A stretch of 16,092 nucleotides of DNA from an archaeon (GTDB lineage Archaea > Nanobdellota > Nanobdellia > Woesearchaeales > UBA9642), in assembly GCA_043806035.1 (NCBI GenBank), contig JAZDHK010000006.1, forward strand, positions 1 through 16,092, in the 5' to 3' direction. The translations under genes were made by a program, and so were the position numbers. The notes below the pieces were generated by a model. That model did not search any database, was not told the DNA's origin, and worked only from the letters and a program-made list of their open reading frames with translations. Below are positions 45-15,802 of the stretch, piece by piece. Every line of letters starts with the position of its first letter. Position 1 is the first letter of the stretch.

Positions 45-1445
45 TCATATATCTCTCTGTCTTGCAGTTCGGTTTTGCCGCAAGACCTTAACTAGGTAGT
101 CTTTCATATTGTTGTCAGCATCCTGGAATGTATTTTCCAAGCTACGCCTATCATAGGTGAGCATGGTTTCGTAATCGTACGGCCAGAGCCTTGTCAAGAG
201 TGCAGGCACGATGCCTTTTGCCTCTGCCATGGTCGGGGTGAGCAGTGCGGCTTTCGCCTCTGCACTCACGTGCTCTATCAGTTTTTCAAACGTGAAGCCT
301 TTCCGCAGGTCAAGCCGTATCTTTGCCAGTTCTGTTGCATGCTCATAGACGTTCTGCGCGTCAATTTTCATCTTGGTAAGCTCTGATGGCCTGGGTCTCT
401 GCAATTTGCTTGCCCGCTCGACGGCGTTTGTCGGATCGATGCCTCTCTTCAAGAGATAGACGTCTTCCAATCGTGAAATCCTCTTTTCGAGGAGTGCAGG
501 ATCATACCGTGCGAAATTGTACGTGAGGAGGAAAGAGACAATGCTTTCCTTGTCCGTGATGGGGAGGTATTGTACTGTGGGTCCGTCTTCTGGCGTGAAC
601 TCGTTCGGCGTGTAGATGACCATGGTCTTCTTGCCTGTTGAGACCGTCTGCCGCTCAATCCGTTCTGCGCTCTTCTTCGGTGCCAGTCTGGCAAGGATGA
701 GTGCCTGCAACAGCGCATCATTGGAAGAGGAGAAACTCGGCCTCCTTATCGGCGCAGTCTCCGTTTGAGTATCATAATTCCTGAAAACGAACAAACCATT
801 GAAGAATCTCGTGCTGAATGTGCTCACGTCTGTCGTGAGCGTGATATCGTGAATGTCGTACTTGCTCACATCACCGACCTGTTCCACTAAGGTATAGATC
901 CTTTTCGGCAACGCCTCATCATTTGCAATCAGCCGTTCCGGTCCTTTCTCTGGATCGTTCAGTTGTGCAAGAAGATCCTTAAGTTCTCTTGCCATGCCTA
1001 TGAATCCTGACGGGGTGTCCAAGTGTAGCTTGACCTTGTTCACAAGCAGTAAGTCTTCCAAACTCGTATACGTGCTCATTCCGTCGTCAAGCTCACCATA
1101 AAGTGAATCGACACGGGTGATGATATCTATACCTTGCATGAACTGCTCGTATAACGCGTCCAGGATCCTGCTGTCGAAGGAAAATTCCTCATGCAGCAAC
1201 GTAGCATCTTTCTGGTTCGGACTGACGACAATGGCGAATCGCTGCGCAGGGCTCGTCTGAAGGTAATTATCTCCCAGTTCCTGTTCTACCTCAGCACTTT
1301 CGCCGCGCTTGTCGATGAAGAACTTTTTCAGTGCAGTAGTCTTGCCCACTGCTTTCTGCAGCGCGGCATTGTACAGGTCAACAAGCACACCATCTACCTT
1401 AACCAGATTATCCTGCACTATGCCTTCGCCAGCGAGGGTTCTCAT
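45..1445 (-). CDS. DUF6638-like conserved hypothetical protein (466 aa)
   Basis: Long ORF with an ATGA overlap with the AAA gene stop. The N-terminal pattern (LVDLYNAAL..TALKKFFID..G.S.EV..ELGD.YL..R.AIVVSP.QK.A.LL) resembles, from memory, DUF6638 proteins encoded after an AAA ATPase in Alphaproteobacteria and Bacteroidota. Confidence 0.75.
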   Translation of the reverse strand: MRTLAGEGIVQDNLVKVDGVLVDLYNAALQKAVGKTTALKKFFIDKRGESAEVEQELGDNYLQTSPAQRFAIVVSPNQKDATLLHEEFSFDSRILDALYEQFMQGIDIITRVDSLYGELDDGMSTYTSLEDLLLVNKVKLHLDTPSGFIGMARELKDLLAQLNDPEKGPERLIANDEALPKRIYTLVEQVGDVSKYDIHDITLTTDVSTFSTRFFNGLFVFRNYDTQTETAPIRRPSFSSSNDALLQALILARLAPKKSAERIERQTVSTGKKTMVIYTPNEFTPEDGPTVQYLPITDKESIVSFLLTYNFARYDPALLEKRISRLEDVYLLKRGIDPTNAVERASKLQRPRPSELTKMKIDAQNVYEHATELAKIRLDLRKGFTFEKLIEHVSAEAKAALLTPTMAEAKGIVPALLTRLWPYDYETMLTYDRRSLENTFQDADNNMKDYLVKVLRQNRTARQRDI

Positions 1446-3424
1446 TGCTTGTCATCTCCCTTTGCGTCCTTTCCACTTTTCATTATGCCGTCAAGGACCA
1501 GCTGCATGCCACCTTGCAAGGATTGCAATTTAAGATATTCACTGTCTGCCCCTTTCTCGACCTGCCCCTCGAAGTAGCGCAAGCGTCCTTCCACTTGATG
1601 CGCAAGGGCCTTCTCTTCAGCCTCGACTGCTTCAGCCTTATCATTCGCTGTATATCTTTCTTCGGAGTCCGCATACCTTTGCGCTTCCTGCCAGAGCATA
1701 TCCGGCGTTATAGGGACATAGAGCTTGCCCACCATTGCCAGTTTCTCCGCATATGGTTTGTCGAAATATGCCTTCCTGTCCTTGAGCCATTCTTCAGGCA
1801 CGTCGAAGTCCGCAGCCCTCTCCTTAATCGCTTCCGTGATTGCTTTCATGGATCGTCCGGTGATGCTGGGGTTTTTTGCTTTCAAGTCTGCCATGAACTT
1901 ACCGAAGTCAAGAATGCTTGACTTCCCGTATTTTCTGAATTCGTCAGCCATGTAGTCCTGGACGTTCTTCTGGGACCAGTGGCCTGATTCGTCCTGCACG
2001 TCTTGCGTGGCAAAAGGCACGGCTCCGTTTTCCATCTTGAGCAGTCCTCGATTCATGAGCCTGCCCATGGTGAGGTGTATCATATCTGCGAAGTCCTCTG
2101 CAGTCTTAGGACCATCAATTAATGCCCTGTACTGGAATCTGTTTCTCATGGCTTCGTCGAGTCCTGTCGGTTTGTTTGATGCGGCAAAGTTGATGACGTT
2201 TCCCAGTCTCATCGTGAATGCGCCGTCCAAGTACTGCATGAGTATGTTGTTGATGTCGTTGTCAGCACCCTGTGCCTCTTTTCTTGTTGATGTCAAGAGG
2301 TCGATATCGTCAAGGATGCCTATAACCAAGGCAGTCGGGTCCTTTGCAACGTTGAGCCTTTCAAGGAGTATCTTGCCCGATTTGCCGTAATACTCATCCT
2401 TGATGGATTGGTCGACGGTGAAAATCTGATAGGGAACATCTAATGCTGTCGCGTACTCTCGTAGGAGGGTCATGGCCATCCTAAACATCGATGTCTTTCC
2501 CGTTCCTGGAGGCCCGTCGAAAAGCACTGACCAGTACAGGCCGCCTATATCCATGACGGGGTTCTTCTTCTCATTGAAATCGTACAGGAACAGCCGTTGG
2601 ACGTTCCTCTTGATGACGCGCTTCGCGCTCTGATTGCCCACAATTTCATTTTCGGTGATGGGCACAAACGTGAGCTGGCTTGCTGACGTCTTCACGATAG
2701 GCATGCTCTTGTTCTCGTATCCTTCAAGAGCGATGACTTCCTTTTCTTCCTTGCCCTTGCCGGAAAGGACTCTGAAGCGATGTCCTTCGAGATGTTCATT
2801 CATGTCCGTGAATGTGTCCTTCCGGTCTCTTGTCTGGTTCGCCCAGTGCTCAAAAAGTTCGAGAGCATACAGTGGGAAGTCGTATTGTGTCTTGAAGACT
2901 TGTTTCCCACCTGACACATGCTTGTTTAGTATTGCGAACAAAGGCGCGACAAGCTGATTACGCACGGTCAATTCTGGTTTTGTGGTATCGATTGCAAACC
3001 CTTTGAAGTCGGGCTTGTCCTTGATCGCGCTAAGGTCGATGTGACCATTAAGTAGGTCTTCGAGCTTTCGTTGCACGAAGGATGAGGCGACAAACGTCGC
3101 ATAATTGTACACAAAATCTTTTGTGTGCACCAGTACAGGATCCGTGCCTGTGCTGTTTACAAGCTTATCACCGAGCTCGACTTTTTTTCCGATATCATCA
3201 GCAATTGCCTTGAAGACTTGTAATCCTTGGCGTATGGTGATGTACGCTTCTGTCTCGAGCGGGTTCATGATGCATGGTTCGTCCTCATCAAGCTGGTTCA
3301 TCAGATCAGTGAGATCGAGTTTGAGCTGGCCGAGCGTGAAGGACTGTAGTCTGCTCTCTACTTCTTGCTGGTATGTCTTTAATCGTTCAGGTGTTATGTC
3401 TACTGGTGCTTTTGCGTTAACCAA
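1442..3424 (-). CDS. AAA+ ATPase (classical AAA clade) with long N-terminal domain (660 aa)
   Basis: Walker A GPPGTGKT, pore loop EYYGKS, Walker B IGILDDID, sensor-1 AASN and SRH LDEAMRNRF. TTG start preceded by GAGGGG, with an 8-nt overlap with the upstream gene. Confidence 0.93.
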   Translation of the reverse strand: MVNAKAPVDITPERLKTYQQEVESRLQSFTLGQLKLDLTDLMNQLDEDEPCIMNPLETEAYITIRQGLQVFKAIADDIGKKVELGDKLVNSTGTDPVLVHTKDFVYNYATFVASSFVQRKLEDLLNGHIDLSAIKDKPDFKGFAIDTTKPELTVRNQLVAPLFAILNKHVSGGKQVFKTQYDFPLYALELFEHWANQTRDRKDTFTDMNEHLEGHRFRVLSGKGKEEKEVIALEGYENKSMPIVKTSASQLTFVPITENEIVGNQSAKRVIKRNVQRLFLYDFNEKKNPVMDIGGLYWSVLFDGPPGTGKTSMFRMAMTLLREYATALDVPYQIFTVDQSIKDEYYGKSGKILLERLNVAKDPTALVIGILDDIDLLTSTRKEAQGADNDINNILMQYLDGAFTMRLGNVINFAASNKPTGLDEAMRNRFQYRALIDGPKTAEDFADMIHLTMGRLMNRGLLKMENGAVPFATQDVQDESGHWSQKNVQDYMADEFRKYGKSSILDFGKFMADLKAKNPSITGRSMKAITEAIKERAADFDVPEEWLKDRKAYFDKPYAEKLAMVGKLYVPITPDMLWQEAQRYADSEERYTANDKAEAVEAEEKALAHQVEGRLRYFEGQVEKGADSEYLKLQSLQGGMQLVLDGIMKSGKDAKGDDKQ

Positions 3425-4541
3425 GGATATCCCCTCTTGTATCTATTCCGTATATCATCGCCTTGCCCAGATCCAGTTTGTGGTTATGCACTTCTGGAAT
3501 GAGGACGTGAGGCATGAGCATGTAACGTGGTGAGGCGACGACGTCCGAGAAGACGCCGATGTGCCTATCGCCTGATTTCCAGGCATCCCATTTTTTGCCT
3601 ATTCCTGTTACTTCCTGCTCCTCAATGCACGTAACGAACATGCGTTGGTAGCAGAGGATGGCATGATCCTTATCTTGGATGAGTGCGGCTATCGCTTCGT
3701 TATTGTTCGTGAATTTCGTGAAGAACGGCCCAAGATCATATCGTTCTACCGCGCGTACCTGGACTCCTTCGATGGCATCGACAGCTTCTGCGAGTTCCTG
3801 CAATTCGAGGCCGACCATGCCTTCCAATGTTTTGGCCACGGTCTGTGCAAGCTCTGCCTGCCATTCCTTTTTTCGTATGCTCTTTTCTGGCACATCGAGA
3901 TAGAGTGTATAAAAGTGAGGTATGTTGTTGTAAGGGTCAAGCACCTCTACATTCTGGATGAGCTTGAATTTTTCTCCTGCTCGTTTGACTACTTCAAGCT
4001 CGTGCAGCCGTCTCGTGACAGGAATGTCCAATGCTGCTAGGCGTTCCAGATAGAGTCGTTTGTGCATGGCGAGCATCATGTCTGATGGGTAGAGCTTTCT
4101 CCGTAAGAGATAGTCTGCCCGCTCGACGATTTGCTTTGCAGAAGGCAATGCTGCAAGCTGTTGCTGCACTGTTGCCTTGTCCTGCTCGAGCACGTACATG
4201 TCGCGCATGATGACCGGATAGCCTGATTCAGACGGATCTATAGCGCAGTCTTGTTTGATGTCGCCGTTGATCGATTTTGCTTCTATGATATTTCGGAGCA
4301 GGACGAGATCGAGGCTTGATCTTAGACGAGCCATGTATTGCAGCAATGCTTGATTGTTACCGCCGACTTCTACGGGCAGTTTTTTAGAGATAAGATCCAC
4401 CATGGATCCGAGCATGTCCTTTAGCTTTGTCAGGTGCGTCACTGCATCCTGGTCAGATAGTTGTTTCAAGTCGTTTTGGATGGTGAAATTTAGAGTGGAC
4501 ATTCCCTGTAATGAATCATTGCCGGAAAGCGTGTCTGTCAT
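3417..4541 (-). CDS. Conserved hypothetical protein of the AAA/DUF6638 module (374 aa)
   Basis: GGTGA SD just before the ATG. The ID..ESGYP..D...L..LP..P....R.Y.E.L pattern resembles, from memory, the gene preceding the AAA ATPase in the bacterial DUF6638 operon. Confidence 0.8.
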   Translation of the reverse strand: MTDTLSGNDSLQGMSTLNFTIQNDLKQLSDQDAVTHLTKLKDMLGSMVDLISKKLPVEVGGNNQALLQYMARLRSSLDLVLLRNIIEAKSINGDIKQDCAIDPSESGYPVIMRDMYVLEQDKATVQQQLAALPSAKQIVERADYLLRRKLYPSDMMLAMHKRLYLERLAALDIPVTRRLHELEVVKRAGEKFKLIQNVEVLDPYNNIPHFYTLYLDVPEKSIRKKEWQAELAQTVAKTLEGMVGLELQELAEAVDAIEGVQVRAVERYDLGPFFTKFTNNNEAIAALIQDKDHAILCYQRMFVTCIEEQEVTGIGKKWDAWKSGDRHIGVFSDVVASPRYMLMPHVLIPEVHNHKLDLGKAMIYGIDTRGDILG

Positions 4542-4555
4542 GGTCTCACCGTATG

Positions 4556-4579
4556 AATAAAAAAAGATAATAAAAAAAA
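4556..4579 (-). terminator. Oligo-T tract, likely archaeal intrinsic terminator or attenuator inside the module
   Basis: The minus strand has two T runs (TTTTTTTT ATTATC TTTTTTT) immediately after the TAA of the coiled-coil gene. Confidence 0.55.
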
Positions 4580-5722
4580 TTAGATGCCGTCGCCACTCGA
4601 ACTGTTTGCGTATCGCTCAGCAAGCGTCCTCTGCGAGTTCTCAATGACCTTGCCATAGCGAACGTCGAAGTCATGGACTTCTTCCTTGAGCTTGTCAATG
4701 AGGGTCTTGACGACTTCAGCTGCAACAGTTTCTTTTTCGGTCTCGCTAGTGATTCTGTCCTTGATGACCTGTGCCATCTGGCTACCAATTCTGAGCGATT
4801 CCTGCGTTGCATAATTGAAGCTCTGGTTCGTGTCAACAGTTGCTTCTGCGATCTCCATGAGCTTCTTTGCCTTCGCACCTGCGAGCAGGATCTGCGTGCC
4901 GTCCTCAACCTTTTCCCTAATTTGGTTGGCTGCGATACCGAAGTTCCTGATGACCAACGAATAGTTGTCTCGTTGCACTTTGTTCGGCTCCATGAGTTCG
5001 CCGGCAATCTTGTAGATCATGGATACTTCGTCATATGCTGACTGGGTAGGCACGATCTTGCCGTGCTTGAGGTCCTTCAGTTCAGTCTCCAGCTTGACTC
5101 TGGTTGCAGGGTCTGCAGTCTCGAGCTGCTCTTCTAATGCTTTGTATTGTGCTTCGAGCGCATCGAGCTTCTCTTTCAGTTCTGCTTGCTTGGGCTGGCT
5201 CAATTCCAGCTTCTTTGCGAGCAGTTCAACTGTGCTTGCAAGTCCTTCATACTGCTTTATTGCTACTGCTCTGACTTGCAGCAGTTCACTGACGACTGCT
5301 GTTGCATATTTAATAATGGTTCTGAGATTCTGTTCAGGAGTCTGCGTCTTAAGACGTTCGTTTCTCCATTGCTTTGCTTTTGAAGGCCAAAACCACTTGA
5401 CGAGTTTTTCCGAGCCTTCGTATTGGCCGACTTTGCCCATGAATTCAGTGTACTGGTTGAGTTTCTCTGCCAGTCCTGACGTGAGCGTTCCGATATTGTC
5501 CTGGAATGCCTGGAATGCCTGGAAGCCTTCCTTCATGGTGTTAAGCTTTGCTAGCTGCGTTTCTTTCTGCTGCCTCAAATCGACGGTGCCGCCTGCCAAT
5601 GCTTGCTCCAGTCCCCTCATGCTTTCCATCATGTCGCTGGAACTGAGTTTCGTCTTTAGGCCACGAAGGTCTTGTAACGTTTTCAGGTCTTCATCGCCAT
5701 ATACTTGTTTTGTTTCTACCAT
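4580..5722 (-). CDS. Long coiled-coil protein, first gene of the AAA/DUF6638 module (about 380 aa)
   Basis: Heptad-rich helical sequence (ELKEKLDALEAQYKALEEQLE; RVKLETELKDLK) with a short amphipathic WFWP segment. The start is moved to ATG 5722 (MVETKQ) because AGGAGAGGG lies upstream; the ORF-track start is 5743. Confidence 0.85.
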   Translation of the reverse strand: MVETKQVYGDEDLKTLQDLRGLKTKLSSSDMMESMRGLEQALAGGTVDLRQQKETQLAKLNTMKEGFQAFQAFQDNIGTLTSGLAEKLNQYTEFMGKVGQYEGSEKLVKWFWPSKAKQWRNERLKTQTPEQNLRTIIKYATAVVSELLQVRAVAIKQYEGLASTVELLAKKLELSQPKQAELKEKLDALEAQYKALEEQLETADPATRVKLETELKDLKHGKIVPTQSAYDEVSMIYKIAGELMEPNKVQRDNYSLVIRNFGIAANQIREKVEDGTQILLAGAKAKKLMEIAEATVDTNQSFNYATQESLRIGSQMAQVIKDRITSETEKETVAAEVVKTLIDKLKEEVHDFDVRYGKVIENSQRTLAERYANSSSGDGI

Positions 5723-5808
5723 TCTTGATCCCTCTCCTTTCATCCTTTTTGTTTATGTTCCTCGTAACTCACCAATATTATTACTAAGCAGTGAGGAATG
5801 TGCTTTCC

Positions 5809-6777: not shown

Positions 6778-6792
6778 TATTTAATTGTAACG
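6778..6792 (-). promoter_or_regulatory. Possible TATA box for the 250-aa gene
   Basis: The minus strand reads CGTTACA-ATTAAATA about 40 nt upstream of the ATG; the BRE match is weak. Confidence 0.35.
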
Positions 6793-6834
6793 ATAATCAT
6801 CTCTAATAATATATTGTTGGAAAAGTGCGTTTTT

Positions 6835-6851
6835 GCCGAAAGGTATAAATA
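6835..6851 (+). promoter_or_regulatory. BRE + TATA promoter of the first Lrp gene
   Basis: GCCGAAAGG-TATAAATA is a close match to the archaeal consensus. Confidence 0.75.
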
Positions 6852-6924
6852 GAAGGCGGACACTGTCCTTGGTTATAGGCAGCACCAGAGCAAGACAAGG
6901 GTGTTGCCGGTGCGAGGAGATATC

Positions 6925-7932
6925 ATGGCAGGCCGTATCGACTATGAAAGCATGGAAGAGAACATCAAGATCGACGTCAAGGACAAGCGGATTCTCAGCT
7001 TGCTCGCCGAAAATGCACGAACCCCGCTTACTGCCATCGCAAAGAAAGTCCAGCTGAGCAGGGATGCTGTCGACTATCGGATCAAGCGGCTGCAGAAGGA
7101 CGGTGTCATCCAGCGCTTCTTCGCATCGGTCAATTATGAGAAGCTCGGCTACTACGTCTTCCATGTCTTTTACTTGCTCGATGAGGTGAACAAGGAACAG
7201 TACAGACAGCTCATGGAGCATCTCAAGAAGCACCCGAACATCATCAGCATCATCGAATACAATGACCGTTGGGACATCCACGTGGAGATGATTGCCAGGA
7301 ACCTCATCGAATTCGACATCATCCTCTCCGAGATCGCCTCGAAATACCCGGATACGATCGTCGAGAAGGACAAGGCAGAAATCATCAGGAGCTACAGCAA
7401 CAATTTCGTGCCGCCGCTCATCGCCGGGCAGGAGAGCATCAAGATCGTACAGAAGCAGCCCGTACCCGTGAAGGTCGACGATACCGACCTCAAATTATTG
7501 CGGCTGCTCTGCGAGGATTGCAGGGCCTCGACGTATCAGCTGGCACAGCAGCTGCACATCAGCCCCGATACCGTCGGGTATAGGATTCAGAACCTGCTCA
7601 AGGAGGAGGTCATCACCAAGTTCACCATCCAGGTGAATTATTCGAAGATGAAGTACATCCTGTACACGTTCAGCATCGGCATGAAGATGTTCGACCTCGC
7701 CAACGAGCAGAAGTTCAAGAGCTTCCTCGACAAAAACCTCAACATCCTCAAGAGCACCAAGACGCTCGGCGGGTGGGACTTGCTGCTCTACATCGTGGTA
7801 CAGCACCCCCGCGAATATCATGCACTGGTGAAAGACATGAAAGCGACGTTCACAAACATCATCAGGAGCTACCAGACGTGGATCGCGTACAAGGAATACA
7901 TCTACGAGCCGCTGCCCGCAGTGATCAAGTGA
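6925..7932 (+). CDS. Lrp/AsnC family transcriptional regulator, tandem duplicated (HTH-RAM-HTH-RAM, 335 aa)
   Basis: Two Lrp HTH signatures: DVKDKRILSLLAENARTPLTAIAKKVQLSRDAVDYRIKRLQKDGVI and DDTDLKLLRLLCEDCRASTYQLAQQLHISPDTVGYRIQNLLKEEVI. Each is followed by a RAM domain (DRWD, GGWD). GAGGAG SD before ATG 6925. Confidence 0.95.
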   Translation: MAGRIDYESMEENIKIDVKDKRILSLLAENARTPLTAIAKKVQLSRDAVDYRIKRLQKDGVIQRFFASVNYEKLGYYVFHVFYLLDEVNKEQYRQLMEHLKKHPNIISIIEYNDRWDIHVEMIARNLIEFDIILSEIASKYPDTIVEKDKAEIIRSYSNNFVPPLIAGQESIKIVQKQPVPVKVDDTDLKLLRLLCEDCRASTYQLAQQLHISPDTVGYRIQNLLKEEVITKFTIQVNYSKMKYILYTFSIGMKMFDLANEQKFKSFLDKNLNILKSTKTLGGWDLLLYIVVQHPREYHALVKDMKATFTNIIRSYQTWIAYKEYIYEPLPAVIK

Positions 7933-9427: not shown

Positions 9428-10384
9428 CTATAAATACGCGTACTTGTACTCTTCATAGGCTGGCATGGTCTCGAACTGCGTGATCCCGAAAACATTCCTG
9501 AGTTCGAGTATCGTTTCATGCAGCTGTTCTGTTTTCTCAATGCACAGATAGCAGAGCACATCATACTTGCCCAGGCATGTCGTCGCCCAGAGCACGTGCT
9601 TCTGCAGGCGCAGATGATTGAGCACTTTCTCTGACTCGAGCGTCGAGAGCAGCACGGCATGGACGTCGTAGCCGAGCGCTGCATAATTGATGACAGGCAC
9701 GTAGTTGAGGATGACGCCTTCTTTCTCGAGACGTCGTACCCGCTGCAATACACTGTCATGGCTCATGCCCAGCTGAGGCCCTAATTGGTAGAACGGCTCG
9801 CGCGCATTCCGCGAGATGCTTTTCAGGATGAGTATGTCCTTCTCGTCGACAGCAACCTGTCCTTCATGGGCACGATCTGGTTCGACGCTTCCGAAACTTC
9901 GTGGGAAAACACGATGCACAGCCTGCCCGGTGAGAATGTGCACGTCAGAAGAAAAAAAGGATCCCCCAGCACGCAGGATCCCTGCCATCATGACGCTGCA
10001 TTCTTGATTCGTCCTCGCATGGAGTGCGAGTTCATAGTCGTATTTTCCCGTGTACTTGATAACGGCAGCGATGCCGTCCATCTGCTTGAGCATGTTGCGG
10101 AATTGCAGTTCTTGCTCTTTCGTGATACTGCGAAATTGGAGGAAACAGTGGAATGATTCGTAGCCAAGCGCGTGCATGTTGATGACTGCCCTGAATCCTT
10201 GGATGATGCCTTCTTCGGCAAGCTTCGTAATCCGGTAGCGCACAGCATCTCTGGAAACTCTGCACTGCCTGCCGAGCATGGTGTAGGTTGCTCGCGCATT
10301 ACGCGCAAGACCTCTGAGAATCTTCCCATCCTTCTCGTCCAGACGTATTTTATCGGAAGTCTCATGCTGCTGAATATACCTCAT
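9428..10384 (-). CDS. Lrp/AsnC family transcriptional regulator, tandem duplicated (318 aa)
   Basis: Two HTH signatures (LDEKDGKILRGLARNARATY...VRYRITKLAEEGII; VDEKDILILKSISRNAREPF...VLQRVRRLEKEGVI), each followed by a RAM domain with GKYD. Confidence 0.95.
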   Translation of the reverse strand: MRYIQQHETSDKIRLDEKDGKILRGLARNARATYTMLGRQCRVSRDAVRYRITKLAEEGIIQGFRAVINMHALGYESFHCFLQFRSITKEQELQFRNMLKQMDGIAAVIKYTGKYDYELALHARTNQECSVMMAGILRAGGSFFSSDVHILTGQAVHRVFPRSFGSVEPDRAHEGQVAVDEKDILILKSISRNAREPFYQLGPQLGMSHDSVLQRVRRLEKEGVILNYVPVINYAALGYDVHAVLLSTLESEKVLNHLRLQKHVLWATTCLGKYDVLCYLCIEKTEQLHETILELRNVFGITQFETMPAYEEYKYAYL

Positions 10385-10408
10385 TTTTTACGTTTATTAC
10401 GCTACTTA

Positions 10409-10423
10409 TATTTAAATTTTTCG
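10409..10423 (-). promoter_or_regulatory. BRE + TATA promoter, leaderless transcript of the second Lrp gene
   Basis: The minus strand reads CGAAAAA-TTTAAATA, ending 24 nt before ATG 10384. Confidence 0.7.
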
Positions 10424-10429
10424 TAAATA

Positions 10430-10455
10430 GTGGATTTTTTTAGAGAAATATTCAC
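10430..10455. promoter_or_regulatory. Imperfect inverted repeat, candidate operator
   Basis: GTGGATTTTT-N6-AAATATTCAC, with 8 of 10 arm positions complementary, lies between the Lrp gene and the HD operon. Confidence 0.35.
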
Positions 10456-10488
10456 ATATTTTGATTGCTTTTCTTGATCGGTGGAAAC

Positions 10489-11073
10489 ATGAACGCACCA
10501 GAACACGATTGGATACATACCTTCGAGCAGCTCAGCAGGACGACACGACAACTCTCCTCTGACCTGCCCTACCACAACGCAGAACACGCATTCGACGTGT
10601 GCACAGAAGTGCTCTCGCTCAGCAAGAACCTGCCTTGGAACGAACGCTACCTCTTAGGAACTGCAGCATTGCTGCACGATATCGAGTACAAAGTAGGCTA
10701 TGCGCAGAATGAAGAGCATGCTGTAGGATTCGCTGAACGCTACCTGCCTCACCTCGGTTATGTCCCACAGGAGATACAGCGCATCAGCGAGCACATCCTC
10801 TCGACGAAACTAGGATCTCCTCTCAAGAACGAGTATAGCGCGTATCTCGTCGACGCTGATCTTGCCAATCTCGGCAGAACAGACTTTTTCGAGAAGAACG
10901 AACTGCTCAGGAAGGAATGGTGTGGCAAAGATGGAAAGGAATGGCAAGAGAGAGCGCTTGCTTTCCTCAGCCAGCACACCTATCGCACGAAGGAAGCGCA
11001 GGAACAATATGATGAGCAGAAGCGAAAGAACATCGAGTGCATGCTCGAGAAGGTGAAGGTATATGCTTCTTGA
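10489..11073 (+). CDS. HD-domain metal-dependent phosphohydrolase, phosphodiesterase-like (194 aa)
   Basis: Motifs YHNAEHAFDV, AALLHD, NEE and DADL. GGTGG SD before ATG 10489. Confidence 0.9.
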   Translation: MNAPEHDWIHTFEQLSRTTRQLSSDLPYHNAEHAFDVCTEVLSLSKNLPWNERYLLGTAALLHDIEYKVGYAQNEEHAVGFAERYLPHLGYVPQEIQRISEHILSTKLGSPLKNEYSAYLVDADLANLGRTDFFEKNELLRKEWCGKDGKEWQERALAFLSQHTYRTKEAQEQYDEQKRKNIECMLEKVKVYAS

Positions 11074-12199
11074 GGAACTCACCGACAAAACATACGTGCA
11101 TTGCGAACGGTACATCAATCTCTTCAAGAAAGTCAGCAACGACGTCAATCCGGACTACTGCGCCATCAACGGCCTTGAGCACTTCCTGCTGCCTCACGCA
11201 CTACTCCCCCCTAACGACGTACAGCTCTCTACAGCACAACCCCGTGAAGAACTGCTGCGCACGTTCGTGCATGACAAAGTCCTGTTTTTTGTGCATCCTG
11301 AAGAAGCAAGCACGTTCAATTTGCCTCTATCGTACACGACCATCGCCCGTCCTACAGCATCAACGAGAACAGTCATCCCTGACGGTGCGCAGTATGCGGT
11401 GAAGCTGCATCTGAACAAGCGACTCTCCCGATTCATCCGCAGGCTCACCGAGAGCAGCGTCCGGCACAGCATCGCCATATCTCGTGAGTTAGAAAAAGCA
11501 CGCATGCCTGCTTCGTTCGCATTCCTTCCTGAATGCATCGGCGTCTGCTACAACGATAGGGGCATGATCGTTCGCGACATGACTCCCAGACCTATAATAG
11601 AGAAAAGGCAGGTGCTCCCGCTCTTTAGTCTTTACGCTCCCGATCTCAAGGATGAAACACACATTCCATTTTTTAGGCAGCTCGTGGAAAAACACGATGC
11701 AGAACCGCTCGACTATTTCCTGACGAGCATCGTCAAGCCACTCTTCACAAATCTTGCGCATGCCATCCGAAACTATGGTCTGCTGCTCGAGCCGCACGGC
11801 CAGAACGTCCTCATCGAATTTGACAAGCAATGGAACATCACCCGACTCGTGCACAGGGATTTCCAGAGCATGTACGTCGACAATGACATCAGGAAGGAGA
11901 AAGGATTGGCATTGCCGTTCACCAAGCACATCATGGGAGAGGAATGCGCAAAAGAGATCAGCTACAGTCTTGTTTACGACAATTACGTCGGCAAATACGT
12001 CTTCGAGCCATTTACTGAGTATCTCCAACGCGATTTTGGCATTGAGAAGGAGAGGAGCAGAGCAGCAATACGTGAGTATTTTGCCAAGCTCATGCCACAG
12101 CACTGCTTCCCGAAAGGGCAGTATCTTATGGCACAGAACACGTTCAAGGACAACAACACGGAGGTGCAGTATTGTGATGAACGGGCAGCATTCAGATAG
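11063..12199 (+). CDS. IucA/IucC family (NRPS-independent siderophore synthetase-like) protein, short form (378 aa)
   Basis: The NIS motifs occur in the expected order: VHP, PTASTRT, VKL, RFIRRL, LPE, IVR, EPHGQN, RDFQ. AGGTGA SD; 11-nt overlap with the HD gene. Confidence 0.88.
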   Translation: MLLEELTDKTYVHCERYINLFKKVSNDVNPDYCAINGLEHFLLPHALLPPNDVQLSTAQPREELLRTFVHDKVLFFVHPEEASTFNLPLSYTTIARPTASTRTVIPDGAQYAVKLHLNKRLSRFIRRLTESSVRHSIAISRELEKARMPASFAFLPECIGVCYNDRGMIVRDMTPRPIIEKRQVLPLFSLYAPDLKDETHIPFFRQLVEKHDAEPLDYFLTSIVKPLFTNLAHAIRNYGLLLEPHGQNVLIEFDKQWNITRLVHRDFQSMYVDNDIRKEKGLALPFTKHIMGEECAKEISYSLVYDNYVGKYVFEPFTEYLQRDFGIEKERSRAAIREYFAKLMPQHCFPKGQYLMAQNTFKDNNTEVQYCDERAAFR

Positions 12200-12839
12200 A
12201 CGTATCGTTATGATCGACGGCATGAAAGGCACGGGAAAGTCGACAATCGTCGAGTTGCTGCGCCAAGAAGGCTATCCGATTATAGCAAAATACACAAAAC
12301 AGACATACACAACAAACCATTTCTTTGAAGTCCTGGGCGCACTATGCGGGATTGCCCAACCGAATGATACGCTGGCATTGCCGTTCTACTCAACCTTGTT
12401 CGAGCGTCTCATCTCAAACGAGGGCATCATGGAAAAAGGGCTGCTCTCCATCTACTCAGCAGGCTATTACGGTTATCTCCTGCACGACAGACCAGTTCCT
12501 TTTGATGACTACCAGCACATGCTTGACTTCGTCTTTGAGAGCGCACTGAACGTGTATTCTCCGAAAGTAGAGGTCATCTCATTGCGTTGCAGCGATGCCG
12601 AACGGGAGGCAAGGCTTGGCAGGAGAACACCCTTGCATGGAGATATCGTCTTCAGAGAGCACGTTGAGCAGTACAAGCAATTCTTTTCCAGAGCAGAGGA
12701 ATTGCTGAAGGGGCACGGCATTCCCGTCATCACGTTCCAGAACGACAACAGACAAGACCTGGCAAGAATAGTACATGCACCAAGATCACTTTGCCCCTAT
12801 TTGCCGAAAAAACTGAAAGAGAAACAAGGTGTTCAATGA
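12177..12839 (+). CDS. P-loop nucleoside monophosphate kinase-like protein (thymidylate kinase fold, 220 aa)
   Basis: N-terminal IVMIDGMKGTGKST and a LID-like REARLGRR. The strong SD GGAGGTG at 12160-12166 supports a start at GTG 12174 or ATG 12177, overlapping the end of the NIS gene. Confidence 0.82.
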   Translation: MNGQHSDRRIVMIDGMKGTGKSTIVELLRQEGYPIIAKYTKQTYTTNHFFEVLGALCGIAQPNDTLALPFYSTLFERLISNEGIMEKGLLSIYSAGYYGYLLHDRPVPFDDYQHMLDFVFESALNVYSPKVEVISLRCSDAEREARLGRRTPLHGDIVFREHVEQYKQFFSRAEELLKGHGIPVITFQNDNRQDLARIVHAPRSLCPYLPKKLKEKQGVQ

Positions 12840-12847
12840 CTACCTCA

Positions 12848-12862
12848 GAAAAGGATATAAAT
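12848..12862 (+). promoter_or_regulatory. BRE + TATA promoter, leaderless transcript of the 117-aa gene
   Basis: GAAAAGGA-TATAAAT ends about 23 nt before ATG 12886. Confidence 0.6.
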
Positions 12863-12885
12863 TATTGCAGGTTTGCATATCTTAC

Positions 12886-13239
12886 ATGAGCAAATCAGCA
12901 GCGATAGCAGCAGGCATCATGAATGGGTGCCTGACGGGATTCATGGTTGGCATGGTAGATACCTGCATACACGGCAACACACCTATCGACGTTGCTTCTG
13001 CAGAGATTGCCAACACGATTGCTCCAACGCTGAGCACGAGCATCAGCGCCTACTTGGGCAAGGGATTCGTCTCCAAGAAGAAGAATATGCCCTCACCCAT
13101 GTCCCTGGACGACTACTTGAAAAAGAACCCGAAAGAATCTGCAGCAGCCAACACGGCGACGGCACTAGTGTACGCGAACATCGTCCATAGAGTAGTGTAC
13201 TATGGTCTTCGTCTGGCAGTCTATGGCCTGTCAAGATGA
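12886..13239 (+). CDS. Small hypothetical protein, possibly membrane-associated (117 aa)
   Basis: Ala/Gly-rich hydrophobic N-terminus (AAIAAGIMNGCLTGFMVGMV) and a hydrophobic C-terminus. The start is inferred from promoter spacing; the alternative is GTG 12829. Confidence 0.6.
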   Translation: MSKSAAIAAGIMNGCLTGFMVGMVDTCIHGNTPIDVASAEIANTIAPTLSTSISAYLGKGFVSKKKNMPSPMSLDDYLKKNPKESAAANTATALVYANIVHRVVYYGLRLAVYGLSR

Positions 13240-14067
13240 TGCAACGATTGCTTCCTGGACTTTCTCGAGCTCTGCAATCCGTTCCTTGAGCGGGGTTGCT
13301 TGAGAGAAAAAATGCCAAAAAACTTTTTCTAGCCAACCCACCCATAGCGGATCTTCTACGGCATAGAGCAGCGTCATGTCTTCAGTCAGCTCTTCTCCTT
13401 TGTATCGCGTCCTGTCCTTCTCGTCCTTCAGCAGGGCAACAGTTCCATCAAGGATAAAGCAACGCAATGGCTGGAAGCGATGCCGTATCTCGATGGCCTC
13501 ATATCCAAGTTTTTTGTTTATTTTGAGCAGCTCTTGTATGTTCTTCATCGTCGCAATGTCCACACGGGTGAGTATCTTTATGGACACTCCCCTTTTTGCT
13601 GCATCCTCAAGAGCAGACAAGCATGTTTTCTTCCCAGATGTCCAGGAGAGGTTGCCGCTGAAGTTCAGCAGGCTTTTTTTCGTTTCGAGAATGTGCTTGT
13701 TCAGAAGAACCTTGTATTTTTCGCCGACGCTGCGGACGGACTTTTTGCCTTGCACGTGCTGATAGAGGTCAAAAGGTTCAAATTCCTGTTTTGTCCTTCC
13801 CGTCTTTATCTGGGTGAGCAGTTCTTCCTGCACCGTGCTGGCATGAATCTTTTCAATGTGCGCCCAGTACACAATCTTCAGAGCCCCTTTCGTGCCTGGC
13901 CTGAACGTCTTCATGGCCAGCGTTCCATACTGAGCAATGATGTCTTCAACGTAGGATTCTGCGGTGCGCCAGTTCTTGCCGAGAAAATGGGCTACTTCCT
14001 GTATGGTGCGTGGCTGTGCGTAGACGAAATCCTGGATGTCTTTTGCCCGCTTGATGTCCAAAACCAC
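13231..14067 (-). CDS. TrmB-like transcriptional regulator (N-terminal winged HTH, C-terminal PLD-like effector domain, 278 aa)
   Basis: HTH PRTIQEVAHFLGKNWRTAESYVE. The C-terminal AAKRGVSIKIL...IEIRH...RCFILDG pattern fits a TrmB/PLD-like fold without an HKD motif. AGGTGA SD before the GTG start. Confidence 0.75.
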   Translation of the reverse strand: MVLDIKRAKDIQDFVYAQPRTIQEVAHFLGKNWRTAESYVEDIIAQYGTLAMKTFRPGTKGALKIVYWAHIEKIHASTVQEELLTQIKTGRTKQEFEPFDLYQHVQGKKSVRSVGEKYKVLLNKHILETKKSLLNFSGNLSWTSGKKTCLSALEDAAKRGVSIKILTRVDIATMKNIQELLKINKKLGYEAIEIRHRFQPLRCFILDGTVALLKDEKDRTRYKGEELTEDMTLLYAVEDPLWVGWLEKVFWHFFSQATPLKERIAELEKVQEAIVASS

Positions 14068-14099
14068 ACCATCACCTTATTGTTGTAATTAATGCACTA

Positions 14100-14789
14100 T
14101 TATTTATAGTTTACTGCTAATGGAATACAACTATATGCTAATTCAGGGATGCATGTTTCAGGTACTGCTTTCGATTGCTGCCCCTTGTCCTGCACCTGCT
14201 CCATCCAGGTCATGAACTGCTGCATTTCTTCCTCAAGAGAGAGGTCTTTGTCCAATTTGAGCAGGGATGTGCCGGTGAAGATGCGTTCCATGTGCGAGAA
14301 TCCGTCGTGCGCCGCGGCAAGATACGTCTTGTCTTCCTCGCGCCATTTCTTCCCTTTTGTTGTCCATCTGCGCTCAAGCCTCGTTACAATGGCATCAAGA
14401 GGTGGGACGAGCACGACAAGATGCGATGGCATGGCGTTATAGTGTGGTTCTGCACAAAATAATTGCTTGCGGAATTGCTCAAGCAAAAGATACTCTTCAG
14501 GAACTATCCATCCTATGTCCGCATACGCTTTCGTGTACACCATACCATCATACACGCACCTATCTACAAATACGGTCTTATCCGGGTATTCTTTGAGGAA
14601 TTCCTGCTGGTCTATCCATTCGTGGAAGTACTTGACGAGCTTTGCCCTGTTCCTCAGAAATGGTTCGTTGGATCTGGCAAATGAAAGTCTGTCTGGGTAG
14701 AGCACAAATCGTTCAGGATGCTGCTGCAGCAACGCATGCATGAATGTGCTCTTCCCCGCCCCGTGTGGGCCGGAGAAGCACACCATCAC
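14100..14789 (-). CDS. Deoxynucleoside kinase / thymidylate kinase-like P-loop protein (229 aa)
   Basis: Walker A FSGPHGAGKST, DRCVYDGMVY (the DR..D..Y motif of the dNK family) and LID RLERR...WREE. Overlaps the CYTH stop codon; GGTGA SD. Confidence 0.88.
   Translation of the reverse strand: MMVCFSGPHGAGKSTFMHALLQQHPERFVLYPDRLSFARSNEPFLRNRAKLVKYFHEWIDQQEFLKEYPDKTVFVDRCVYDGMVYTKAYADIGWIVPEEYLLLEQFRKQLFCAEPHYNAMPSHLVVLVPPLDAIVTRLERRWTTKGKKWREEDKTYLAAAHDGFSHMERIFTGTSLLKLDKDLSLEEEMQQFMTWMEQVQDKGQQSKAVPETCIPELAYSCIPLAVNYK
14101..14114 (-). promoter_or_regulatory. BRE + TATA promoter of the TrmB-like gene, embedded in the last codons of the kinase gene
   Basis: The minus strand reads GTAAAC-TATAAATA, which also encodes V-N-Y-K-stop. 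Confidence 0.6.
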
Positions 14790-15802
14790 GCTCTCACCCG
14801 TCTCCTTCTGGCTTTCACCGGCGGTGTCTCGAGCAGGAGCACATCATGCACCCCCGTCAGCTCTTGCACGCTCGTTGATAGTGCAATCTCGTTTCCAGAA
14901 ACGAAGTCGTACTTGCGTTCCTGCGTGGGCAGTAACTTCATACTGTAGCCTGCGTTAAGAGGAACGGAATTAAGACCGTAGCTCATGAGCAACGTGCTGT
15001 ACAAGTGAATCATCTCCTCGACAATCTGCCGCTCATCTCCTTTCTGCAATCCAGAAAAGCCAGGGATGAAGCCTGCATATTCCATCTCGAGCTGCACCTG
15101 TCTCCCCTCTCTACCATCAAGCAATTTTGCGTCACTCACCGTGCATCCATATTCCCTGCCTGTGTTGAGGTTGAGCAGGAAGAAATCACCCTTCGTCTTC
15201 TCGATCGTCCCTGCACGAGTGAGTTTGCCATCCTGGTTGAGACGAAGGATGGCTTGAGCAATTTCGTCGGGCGTCGTGGGAATCCTGGTCTCGTACCGTT
15301 TGAGGATGAACTGCTCGAGCGGCAAACCATACGAAAAAGGCTCGACGTGACCCTTCTCCTTCTTATAATAATTCCCTCCTTTGCAGATGATAACCAGTCT
15401 TTCTTCACCCTCTGTCGTGCCGTAGAACGTGTTCGTCCCTGTCGAGATGGCATTCACGGGATCCTTGAGAAACGTGCATCCTTTTGTCGGCTGCAAGTCG
15501 AGGCCGTCGAGAATCTGTTCTATCGTCGGCTCTTTGCCCTGCCCGGTAAGCTGGATGGCGAATTTTGCCTCGAGCTCATACTCGTCGCACTCTTTCGGGG
15601 CGGTCTTGAGATTTTGGTAGTCGTGCAGTTTTTTTATGAATCCCTGCTCATTGCCGTCAGCGACAAGCCCCTGATAGGCAGTGATGAGCACGCTTTTGTC
15701 CTGGCTCTTCAGGAATTCCCTGAATGCCTTCTTCAAGTCAGTGCTTTTGCTGCTCTGCCGCGATGTATACGTGTACCTATCCGAGTCATAACATCCACCC
15801 AT
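14786..15802 (-). CDS. CYTH-like (triphosphate tunnel metalloenzyme) protein with N-terminal extension (338 aa)
   Basis: ExExK signature YELEAKF, followed by KEKG, KRYE, IEKTK, QLEMEY and C-terminal RKY in the order expected for the CYTH tunnel. GAGGTG SD. Confidence 0.75.
   Translation of the reverse strand: MGGCYDSDRYTYTSRQSSKSTDLKKAFREFLKSQDKSVLITAYQGLVADGNEQGFIKKLHDYQNLKTAPKECDEYELEAKFAIQLTGQGKEPTIEQILDGLDLQPTKGCTFLKDPVNAISTGTNTFYGTTEGEERLVIICKGGNYYKKEKGHVEPFSYGLPLEQFILKRYETRIPTTPDEIAQAILRLNQDGKLTRAGTIEKTKGDFFLLNLNTGREYGCTVSDAKLLDGREGRQVQLEMEYAGFIPGFSGLQKGDERQIVEEMIHLYSTLLMSYGLNSVPLNAGYSMKLLPTQERKYDFVSGNEIALSTSVQELTGVHDVLLLETPPVKARRRRVRA

Follow-up and report, generated by a model that had tools for sequence, protein, structure and literature searches.

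Synthetases of the NIS family, such as AcsD, IucA, IucC, SbnC, AsbB, DesD and AlcC, are, to our knowledge, known for little besides making siderophores and serving as drug targets in pathogens. These proteins of 550-650 aa carry a thumb domain. The available sections of one account give the domain order as thumb, finger and palm, with an invariant Arg in the ATP loop, a contribution of the DesD thumb to the dimer interface, and a Thr (Thr301) or a Met/Leu at one position as the marker of substrate type (PMC9356276). For AcsD, the accessible text of another identifies E442 as the general base and R305 as crucial for adenylate formation, and also describes H444 (PMC3323832).

The NIS-like gene considered here is the middle one of three on the plus strand of the window, the whole 16,092-nt stretch of archaeal DNA that was analysed. 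An HD phosphohydrolase gene (10489..11073; 194 aa, with its ATG at 10489 and its stop at 11073) is followed by the ligase gene (11063..12199; 378 aa, ATG at 11063) and by a gene for a dNK/TMK-like kinase (12177..12839; 220 aa, ATG at 12177), which is directly preceded by a GTG in frame at 12174. The original prediction described three overlapping genes, each with its own SD sequence, and the coordinates confirm it: HD and ligase genes overlap by 11 nt, ligase and kinase genes by 23 nt, and purine-rich SD-like motifs read directly from the DNA lie upstream of the starts at 10489 (GGTGG), 11063 (AAGGTGA) and 12177 (GGAGGTG). The same order, with gaps of no more than 27 nt or with overlaps, is kept in relatives that are only 27-52% identical, and the arrangement is therefore not due to chance. 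HD, ligase and kinase form a genuine operon.

Assignment of the ligase as NIS-like was borne out by Pfam matches above cut-off and by the fold of its model. FhuF scored 30.9 bits (cut-off 25.2) and IucA_IucC 26.5 bits (cut-off 25), the latter over profile positions 125-237 of 239 only; in NCBIfam, matches to SbnF, SbnC and FslA were all far below threshold. When the predicted structure (pLDDT 92.5, pTM 0.91) was searched with Foldseek, all top matches were NIS synthetases, with E-values down to 9e-17. VIA gave a Z of 29.1 both for model residues 9-376 against SbnC chain residues 133-580 and for residues 1-377 against AcsD 152-587, and Z of 23-29 over 345-362 aligned residues across SbnC, AcsD, AsbB and IucA/C, at a sequence identity to NIS synthetases of 13-17%. 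Protein-kinase-like small-molecule kinases and AMPylases (WaaP, SelO, Bud32 and APH) formed a second tier of matches (Z 10-12.6 over ∼190-260 residues), far below the NIS matches, and the motifs of the ligase are NIS-type.

The three-domain architecture is incomplete, because the start of the model (residues 1-9) aligns past the thumb, to chain residues 117-152, in six NIS structures. The missing N-terminal thumb amounts to ∼120-150 residues, and a separate gene for it was not found in the organism's own genome, where the sole other IucA_IucC match was noise at 10.1 bits. As judged from the model, the ligase is a true NIS-synthetase fold in a thumb-less 'mini' form, so that the NIS-like label stands, whereas that of an ordinary NIS synthetase does not. 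Its relatives are of similar size (∼380-410 aa).

Finger and palm folds are shared with the described NIS synthetases, as are the ATP-loop Lys and Arg, the E-P-H-x-Q-N motif and the R-D motif. Residues K114, R126, E243, H245, Q247, N248, R265 and D266 were invariant in an alignment of 23 sequences and line up with the FIK..CVRKN, MEPHLQN and RD motifs of AcsD. Alignment of LEPHGQN with MEPHLQN places E243 at the position of the general base E442, and the residues for ATP binding and adenylation are present as K114, R126, H245, N248 and D266, matching K293, R305, H444, N447 and the Asp of the RD motif in AcsD (where we take the numbering to be K293, N447 and D464).

Retention of the residues that serve ATP, the acyl-adenylate and nucleophile activation in AcsD and DesD suggests the standard two-step chemistry. 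A carboxylate (R-COOH) would first react with ATP to form R-CO-AMP, with PPi retained; an amine or hydroxyl would then attack R-CO-AMP to yield an amide or ester together with AMP and PPi. In the ligase the AcsD Thr301 position is occupied by Ser, and the loop RLSRFIRRL, with R120 and R126 invariant or nearly so, is very basic; from these features, a small, anionic carboxylate is the probable substrate. Since most members of the family stand alone in bacteria and many residues that do not contact ATP are family-invariant, the carboxylate and the nucleophile are both likely to be common metabolites.

Unlike the described NIS synthetases, the ligase has no siderophore gene context, and the partners of its family are nucleotide enzymes, radical SAM proteins or hydrolases. 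The lack of siderophore genes in the window, as originally predicted, held in Pfam searches of its 18 proteins, which contained no decarboxylase, N-hydroxylase, acyltransferase or transporter family. Nor were siderophore gene families detected among 40 + 51 + 13 neighbour proteins of other loci; homologues of the ligase were found to adjoin HD and kinase genes, and none of the loci examined held a canonical siderophore cluster. A partial match to Lys_Orn_oxgnase (25.9 bits, on contig C27 of the own genome) was discarded as uninformative, since that family is matched in all 14 control genomes.

According to the accessible part of one report, rhizoferrin requires no more than one NIS synthetase (PMC7857480), and the Ser at the Thr301 position would be compatible with a citrate-type pocket (PMC9356276, likewise seen in part). 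The short ligase could thus make a rhizoferrin-type polycarboxylate chelator from citrate and a common amine, its neighbours being incidental, and MFS transporters do adjoin the gene in bacterial loci L014, L017, L022, L069 and L077. We nevertheless consider this unlikely. Uptake or receptor genes were seen at none of the loci examined, and Peripla_BP_2, present in 13 of the 14 control genomes, was not found in the own genome (93.7% complete). The ligase also occurs in obligate symbiont-type lineages with tiny genomes, its family is rare in the phylum (7/401 genomes), and a chelator would leave the conserved coupling to HD and kinase unexplained.

The metal motif of the HD protein (H29...H63 D64...D124) is invariant in six orthologues, as is H33. 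In Pfam the window protein itself matched only PDEase_I, at 16.3 bits (cut-off 24.8), with no HD match reaching cut-off, and three of five orthologues pass the HD family at 28-32 bits (cut-off 22). A profile search of the PDB recovered 2pq7 (E 2.6e-7), YpgQ (5dqv, E 8e-4) and 3djb, and the N-terminal motif YHNxxHxxDV matches class I PDEs including PDE9A (E 1e-4). The H...HD...D and YHNxxHxxDV motifs are thus held in common with YpgQ/2pq7/3djb-type HDs and class I PDEs, although the match to the latter spans only ∼50 residues and the window HD is a stand-alone protein. The long proteins closest to it are cyclase or cNMP-binding multidomain proteins with a related domain; 114 of the 120 best carry Guanylate_cyc (103) or cNMP_binding (11). 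Structural neighbours in the Atlas (TM 0.87-0.92) are HD domains fused to cyclases, PPK N-terminal domains or PycTM. From its sequence relationships, the HD protein is probably a (cyclic) nucleotide phosphodiesterase or phosphohydrolase that yields an NMP. The case for a cNMP role in this organism is weakened by its own genome, in which neither a class III cyclase nor a cNMP-binding domain was detected.

The kinase has the P-loop GMKGTGKST, and its only Pfam signal, dNK at 14.0 bits (cut-off 27), is confined to that loop. One of five orthologues (L005) passes the cut-off of 27 with Thymidylate_kin (28.0 bits) and dNK (27.4 bits). A profile of six orthologues aligned full-length, over positions 4-195, to Mycoplasma deoxyguanosine kinase (2jas/2jaq, E 0.004), and TMK, dNK and NadR-like AAA_28 clusters are the Atlas neighbours. 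P-loop, overall length and the full-length profile alignment support likeness to the dNK/TMK family, from which the window protein is very divergent, as the E-value indicates. It appears to be a dNK/TMK-like P-loop NMP or nucleoside kinase and is not obviously an AMP kinase. A role as housekeeping TMK was rejected, the canonical TMK being encoded on contig C5 (105 bits). The predicted complex of ligase and kinase scored 0.00 against a mark of 0.32, a value that gives no verdict.

The thumb-less family of ∼400 aa comprises 466 clusters (50% identity) at E<=1e-30, with members in DPANN, CPR, Chlamydiota, Gemmatimonadota, Desulfobacterota and some Gammaproteobacteria. In the openly readable literature, partly poorly targeted searches turned up no account of a short or archaeal NIS-like ligase. 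Among 26 distinct archaeal/CPR-type ligase lineages, nine carry the full HD-ligase-kinase trio, and two further ones, cut by contig ends, are consistent with it. In six others, including one CPR bacterium, the partner of the ligase is an archaeal adenylate-kinase-like gene, and in two it is a radical-SAM gene. The adenylate-kinase-like partner aligns full-length to archaeal adenylate kinases 3h86 (E 1e-9) and 1ki9 (E 6e-9); it has only the P-loop in common with the dNK-like partner and is unrelated to it. Conservation of the trio extends over a small clade of Woesearchaeota/Pacearchaeota-type archaea. The expected co-occurrence of HD and kinase with homologues of the ligase was therefore found, but it is confined to this one clade and most family members lack these partners, which were absent from all 58 bacterial-type metagenome loci (L125-L182) and from the bacterial genome loci.

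Could HD and kinase simply be ordinary nucleotide-salvage enzymes of a reduced genome, functionally unconnected with the ligase? Overlaps are common because DPANN genomes are compact, a second, separate dNK gene lies 1.3 kb from the operon, and the HD subfamily has four paralogues in the own genome in unrelated contexts, beside housekeeping genes (for example AlaX-like and YbaK-like) and with no kinase or ligase. Conservation of the HD-ligase-kinase order at such divergence in nine distinct lineages argues against mere neighbourhood, as does the recruitment of a different kinase family to the same position in six others. Partner labels are, moreover, clustered on the ligase tree, with 8 changes versus a shuffled mean of 17.6. 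A chance association of this kind is accordingly quite improbable.

In bacteria most family members stand alone, also in the cultured, non-pathogenic Psychromonas, Oceanimonas, Reinekea and Desulfogranum. Since the bacterial loci above lack them, HD and kinase are not needed for core ligase function. Salvage of NAD (NadE-like) or CoA (PPS/PPCS-like) was dropped as an explanation, since most members occur by themselves, in bacteria whose pathways are complete. Other partners of the ligase family (radical SAM, esterase, beta-lactamase-fold and HAD) would suit the tailoring of small molecules better than a role with nucleotides. In four Gemmatimonadota loci PPK2 lies convergent to the ligase gene, which would fit a nucleotide link, although it and the HD_5 neighbours in bacteria may reflect lineage synteny. 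Two bacterial proteins, L080 and P0182, join the ligase to two cNMP_binding domains, and a cNMP_binding-PAS gene adjoins it in L040. Ligase fusions are real in L075 and L080. Apparent ones in L029, L056, L059, L072 and L073 were rejected as gene-caller artefacts, consisting of overlapping long ORFs with unrelated families or none.

The operon is, in our view, a genuine ligase module that does not serve siderophore synthesis and has a link to nucleotide metabolism. The explanation that best covers the whole, which we hold tentatively and at somewhat short of even confidence, is a non-siderophore NIS-type ligase with HD and kinase on the nucleotide side of its chemistry. The two partners would remove the NMP (AMP) associated with ligase turnover or phosphorylate it again, the adenylate-kinase-like gene taking the place of the dNK/TMK-like kinase in the sister clade; alternatively, they might adjust the concentration of a nucleotide by which the ligase is controlled. 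The four HD paralogues in unrelated settings count against this explanation. A nucleotide or cyclic-nucleotide link of the module, as distinct from a nucleotide as ligase substrate, is made more plausible by the cyclase/cNMP-fused HD subfamily, the fusions of ligase and cNMP-binding domains and the adenylate-kinase-like partner of the sister clade.

A more direct involvement, the strong form of the original prediction, in which a nucleoside, nucleotide or other phosphorylated metabolite is itself the substrate or product of the ligase, seems doubtful. Kinase and HD would then set the phosphorylation state, and the operon would make or recycle a nucleotide, cofactor or signal with an amide or ester linkage. 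The translational coupling of the ligase to two nucleotide-kinase families and a nucleotide-type HD would fit, as would the cNMP-binding fusions and a HAD phosphatase directly 5' of the ligase in L086, and the basic loop with R120 and R126 could bind phosphate. However, the stand-alone bacterial members lack kinase and phosphatase partners and yet have the same invariant pocket residues, and a nucleotide acts as acyl donor or acceptor in no NIS synthetase that we know of or that the available part of PMC9356276 describes.

It is also very improbable that the module belongs to a system of defence or biological conflict that acts on nucleotides. Its spread is patchy (besides its rarity in the phylum, it was seen in 0/11 genomes of the same family), a DUF6638/AAA/EAD9 operon also lies in the window, HD relatives are fused to Pycsar PycTM, and an integrase, resolvase or transposase is found beside the ligase in L057, L079 and L080. 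In PADLOC, however, HD and ligase had no match and the kinase gave nothing beyond P-loop noise, and the 55 pattern matches in viral contigs included no relative. In Gemmatimonadota the ligase gene keeps a stable chromosomal position beside recA and alaS, and within the bacterial clade its tree largely follows taxonomy.

Returning to the favoured non-siderophore ligase, its retained catalytic machinery, dropped domain and lack of iron context would extend the chemistry of the NIS fold to other cellular roles. With more reserve, the ∼400-aa thumb-less NIS-fold proteins might constitute an unrecognised enzyme class whose chemistry is coupled to nucleotide or cyclic-nucleotide metabolism. Such enzymes might produce a signal or metabolite of nucleotide type with a linked acyl group or amino acid, or be cNMP-controlled ligases, with the archaeal HD and kinase as a turnover or recycling arm; we consider this broader proposal speculative and rather less than likely. 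If true, the class would span DPANN, CPR, Chlamydiota and several free-living bacterial phyla. Accessory enzymes that a minimal genome has kept often bear on dependence on the host, and this thumb-less ligase family is both widespread and present in minimal-genome organisms. Its ties to nucleotide kinases, to a cyclase-associated HD subfamily and to cNMP-binding domains make for a concrete, assayable hypothesis, which is experimentally tractable because several cultured, non-pathogenic bacteria carry the stand-alone gene.

Two further genes border the operon. A small plus-strand ORF (12829..13239; 136 aa from a GTG, or 117 aa from an ATG at 12887) runs over the kinase stop and is possibly co-transcribed with the kinase, although its membership of the operon is uncertain; it has no Pfam or NCBIfam match, and with no relative among 80 genome loci it is not conserved. 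On the other side, the minus strand encodes a double Lrp/AsnC-type regulator (9428..10384; 318 aa) of two HTH+RAM repeats, transcribed divergently from the operon across an A+T-rich intergenic region (10385..10488, read directly) in which both promoters presumably lie. The divergent Lrp regulator of the original prediction was recovered in Pfam, with HTH_AsnC-type at 75.6 bits in two stretches and AsnC_trans_reg at 32.1 bits, so that the AsnC-type HTH and the RAM ligand domain are both present. NirdL-like_HTH is matched as well, at 36.6 bits, and the protein could on that account be an enzyme-like NirDL relative. An orthologue is divergent from the ligase in 13 of the 26 distinct archaeal/CPR-type lineages, and the regulator may control the operon.

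The HD phosphohydrolase (10489-11073), ligase (11063-12199) and kinase (12177-12839) genes lie on the plus strand of contig C6, in a 1.5 Mb genome of 42 contigs with an estimated completeness of 93.7%. The open reading frames overlap by 11 nt (HD/ligase) and 23 nt (ligase/kinase), each of the three is preceded by a purine-rich Shine-Dalgarno (SD)-like motif, and a 318-aa double Lrp/AsnC protein is encoded upstream on the opposite strand (9428-10384). This confirms the original prediction of three overlapping genes with their own SD-like motifs, divergent from an Lrp gene. Its second claim, that siderophore-cluster genes are missing, also held, as Pfam detected no decarboxylase, N-hydroxylase, acyltransferase or transporter families among the 18 window proteins. 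The window encodes another double Lrp/AsnC protein of 343 aa (6901-7932, plus strand; HTH_AsnC-type, 91.5 bits in two stretches), whose gene overlaps a probably spurious minus-strand ORF of 166 aa (6781-7281).

The middle protein had been called similar to the siderophore-making NIS synthetases, and both Pfam (FhuF, 30.9 bits; IucA_IucC, 26.5 bits, confined to the C-terminal half of the profile) and the predicted fold agreed. An AlphaFold model built from an alignment of 23 family sequences was confident (pLDDT 92.5, pTM 0.91), and its top Foldseek matches in the PDB were solely NIS synthetases (IucA, AsbB, NcdF, DesD, AlcC, SbnC, IucC and AcsD; E down to 9e-17, TM by query 0.58-0.71, identity 13-17%). 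An exhaustive structural scan gave Z scores of 29.1 for both SbnC and AcsD and 23-24.6 for AsbB, NcdF, IucC and IucA, followed by a second tier of protein-kinase-like folds (Z 10-12.6). NIS synthetases have the domain order thumb-finger-palm and dimerize through thumb and finger, according to PMC9356276. In every NIS match the first residues of our model paired with chain residues 117-152. The predicted window ligase is therefore the finger and palm of an NIS synthetase and lacks the N-terminal thumb. Literature searches turned up no account of an NIS-like ligase that is archaeal or has lost its thumb.

The 23-sequence alignment, which included archaeal and bacterial members, contained 35 invariant columns. 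Invariant residues include P97, S100, R102, T103, K114, R126, E243, H245, Q247, N248, R265 and D266, and in a profile search of PDB sequences they lined up with the AcsD motifs SPTASIRT, FIK...CVRKN, MEPHLQN and RD. A loop Arg is stated to be invariant across all NIS synthetases in PMC9356276. With the catalytic residues kept, this Arg included, both half-reactions look intact, and we regard adenylating activity of the window ligase as almost certain. Type B and C enzymes have Met or Leu at the position of AcsD Thr301 (PMC9356276), where the ligase family has Ser122 within a strongly basic loop (RLSRFIRRL); from these two features we infer a small, anionic acid substrate. At the C-terminus of the family an Arg in the motif (Y/W)R(P) is invariant, as the last residue or adjacent to it (R378; window 12188-12196), which suggests that the C-terminal tail may have a part in the active site or interface.

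A word-indexed search retrieved 56 ligase relatives; with an exhaustive profile search the number of cluster representatives was 1780 at E<=1e-3, falling to 1073 at <=1e-10 and to 466 at <=1e-30, mostly about 400 aa long among the 150 matches listed. We found 90 relatives on genome contigs and kept 80 of them. These came from Woesearchaeota and Pacearchaeota, from CPR (Jorgensenbacteria, Saccharibacteria) and from Chlamydiota, Gemmatimonadota, Desulfobacterota and Chloroflexota, with genera including Vibrio, Psychromonas, Oceanimonas, Reinekea and Nocardia. The nearest relatives of the window ligase are in Woesearchaeota and Pacearchaeota-type archaea. The gene is rare in its own phylum (7 of 401 genomes searched, its own counted) and was found in none of 11 genomes searched from its own family. 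Of 84 rows, 78 went into a tree (the other 6 covered <300 profile positions), which resolved an archaeal/CPR group (15 rows, SH-aLRT 85) and a bacterial group that mostly tracks taxonomy (52 rows, SH-aLRT 100), with Chlamydiota and a few long branches between them. Trio-bearing rows formed a clade of seven (99% support) that includes L007, a locus with the Lrp gene only.

To survey neighbourhoods we chose the archaeal/CPR-type rows closest to the window ligase (L001-L012, L084-L086, L103-L124) and clustered their ligases at 90% identity into 26 distinct lineages. The ligase does co-occur with HD and kinase genes: nine lineages carried the full trio with a dNK-like kinase (window, L002-L006, L104, L106, L110). 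One had HD and ligase followed by a contig end (L107), one a ligase fragment at a contig start with the kinase (L124) and one HD and ligase without the kinase (L113). The divergent double Lrp gene was present in 13 of the 26. Six lineages (L008, L009, L010, L116, L118, L119) carried an adenylate-kinase-like P-loop kinase beside the ligase, with AAA_18 and AAA_17 above the Pfam cut-off and full-length profile alignment to archaeal adenylate kinases (E 1e-9 to 1e-6). This family has the P-loop alone in common with the dNK-like one; two unrelated nucleotide-kinase families occupy the same position. Two lineages, from archaeal genomes of a different family, have a radical-SAM gene (495 aa, Radical_SAM_N2 and Radical_SAM domains; L084:12-1499, L085:2675-4162) upstream that overlaps the ligase start, and one lineage has an alpha/beta hydrolase and a HAD-like phosphatase upstream (L086). 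In Saccharibacteria-type loci (L012:7188-8827, L013, L015:8016-8771) the ligase precedes a 301-aa protein without a family match plus an alpha/beta hydrolase (cluster c29), which may be a further module variant.

HD orthologues keep the H...HD...D and YHNxxHxxDV motifs, and the profile matched 2pq7, 3djb, YpgQ (5dqv) and the N-terminal motif of class I phosphodiesterases. YpgQ is an Mn-dependent (d)NTP diphosphatase according to PMC8177086. Among the best 120 HD relatives >397 aa (E about 1e-50, 28-39% identical across most of the query), class III cyclase domains occurred in 103 and cyclic nucleotide (cNMP)-binding domains in 11; these counts cover long proteins only and do not tell how much of the subfamily as a whole is fused. 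Structural neighbours in the Atlas agreed with this association. Neither domain was found in the window's own genome (93.7% complete). That genome has four HD-subfamily paralogues, the window copy included, and a distant fifth match. The other three (C36:18310-18888, C39:4870-5391, C5:69750-70346; loci L099-L101) matched at E 2e-45 to 2e-25, and two of them lie beside aminoacyl-tRNA editing-type genes, one AlaX-like and one YbaK/tRNA_edit. The dNK/TMK-like window kinase is distinct from two other kinases, the canonical TMK of contig C5 and the dNK encoded at 14100-14789.

These partners of the archaeal/CPR-type ligases were detected in none of 58 bacterial-type metagenome loci (L125-L182, E<=1e-5), and phmmer detected none in bacterial-type genome loci. 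We consider it improbable that the trio genes are merely adjacent, and ranked this reading fourth. By Pfam, 40 + 51 neighbour proteins of other ligase loci were heterogeneous housekeeping proteins and included no siderophore functions. Recurrent neighbours were a convergent PPK2 (four Gemmatimonadota loci), HD_5 (three loci), MFS transporters (about five) and alpha/beta hydrolases (several). Annotations in the sources go no further than 'hypothetical protein', 'IucA/IucC family protein' or 'siderophore synthetase component'. The window ligase is outside any siderophore pathway in its own organism; a rhizoferrin-like chelator as its product is unlikely and was placed third.

Several relatives are fusions: radical SAM-ligase-esterase (L075:14-5737), the same preceded by two cNMP_binding domains and a B12-binding domain (L080:16-8529, 2838 aa), metallo-beta-lactamase with two cNMP_binding domains and ligase (P0182), ligase with a serine beta-lactamase fold (P0189) and a tandem ligase (P0057). 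In the giant bacterial L080 and L075 proteins the short ligase is set between radical-SAM and esterase domains; the overlapping radical-SAM genes of L084 and L085 mirror these fusions. As its partners elsewhere (radical-SAM, esterase, beta-lactamase-fold and HAD proteins) show, the ligase family is a portable module serving several small pathways, which weakens any single-function claim.

All three partner types (the two kinase families, the cyclase-associated HD subfamily and the cNMP-binding ligase fusions) indicate that the link would be through nucleoside monophosphates or cyclic nucleotides. We tentatively place first a reading in which the ligase would join two common metabolites and its partners would handle either the nucleotide product or a nucleotide with a controlling role. 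A nucleotide or phospho-metabolite as the ligase substrate itself is a possible but less probable reading that we ranked second. That the trio is a conflict or defence system seems very improbable and came last.

Elsewhere in the window, a bona fide dNK-family kinase gene (14100-14789, minus; 229 aa, dNK 40.1 bits) overlaps an upstream gene for a 338-aa protein of no assigned family (14786-15802) and is followed by one whose 278-aa product shows PLD-like and AbiK-region matches, both weak (13231-14067); none of the three genes of this region (13231-15802) had a relative at any of the 80 related genome loci. At the other end, a four-gene minus-strand run (45-5743) resembles a biological-conflict system. 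It encodes a DUF6638 protein (466 aa, 92.5 bits), a 660-aa AAA ATPase (AAA 59 bits; PADLOC IetA 30.9 bits; NCBIfam CdvC and IteA-like matches sub-threshold), a 374-aa protein with no family given and, at 387 aa, a protein whose Effector-associated domain 9 scores 26.1 bits (cut-off 25).
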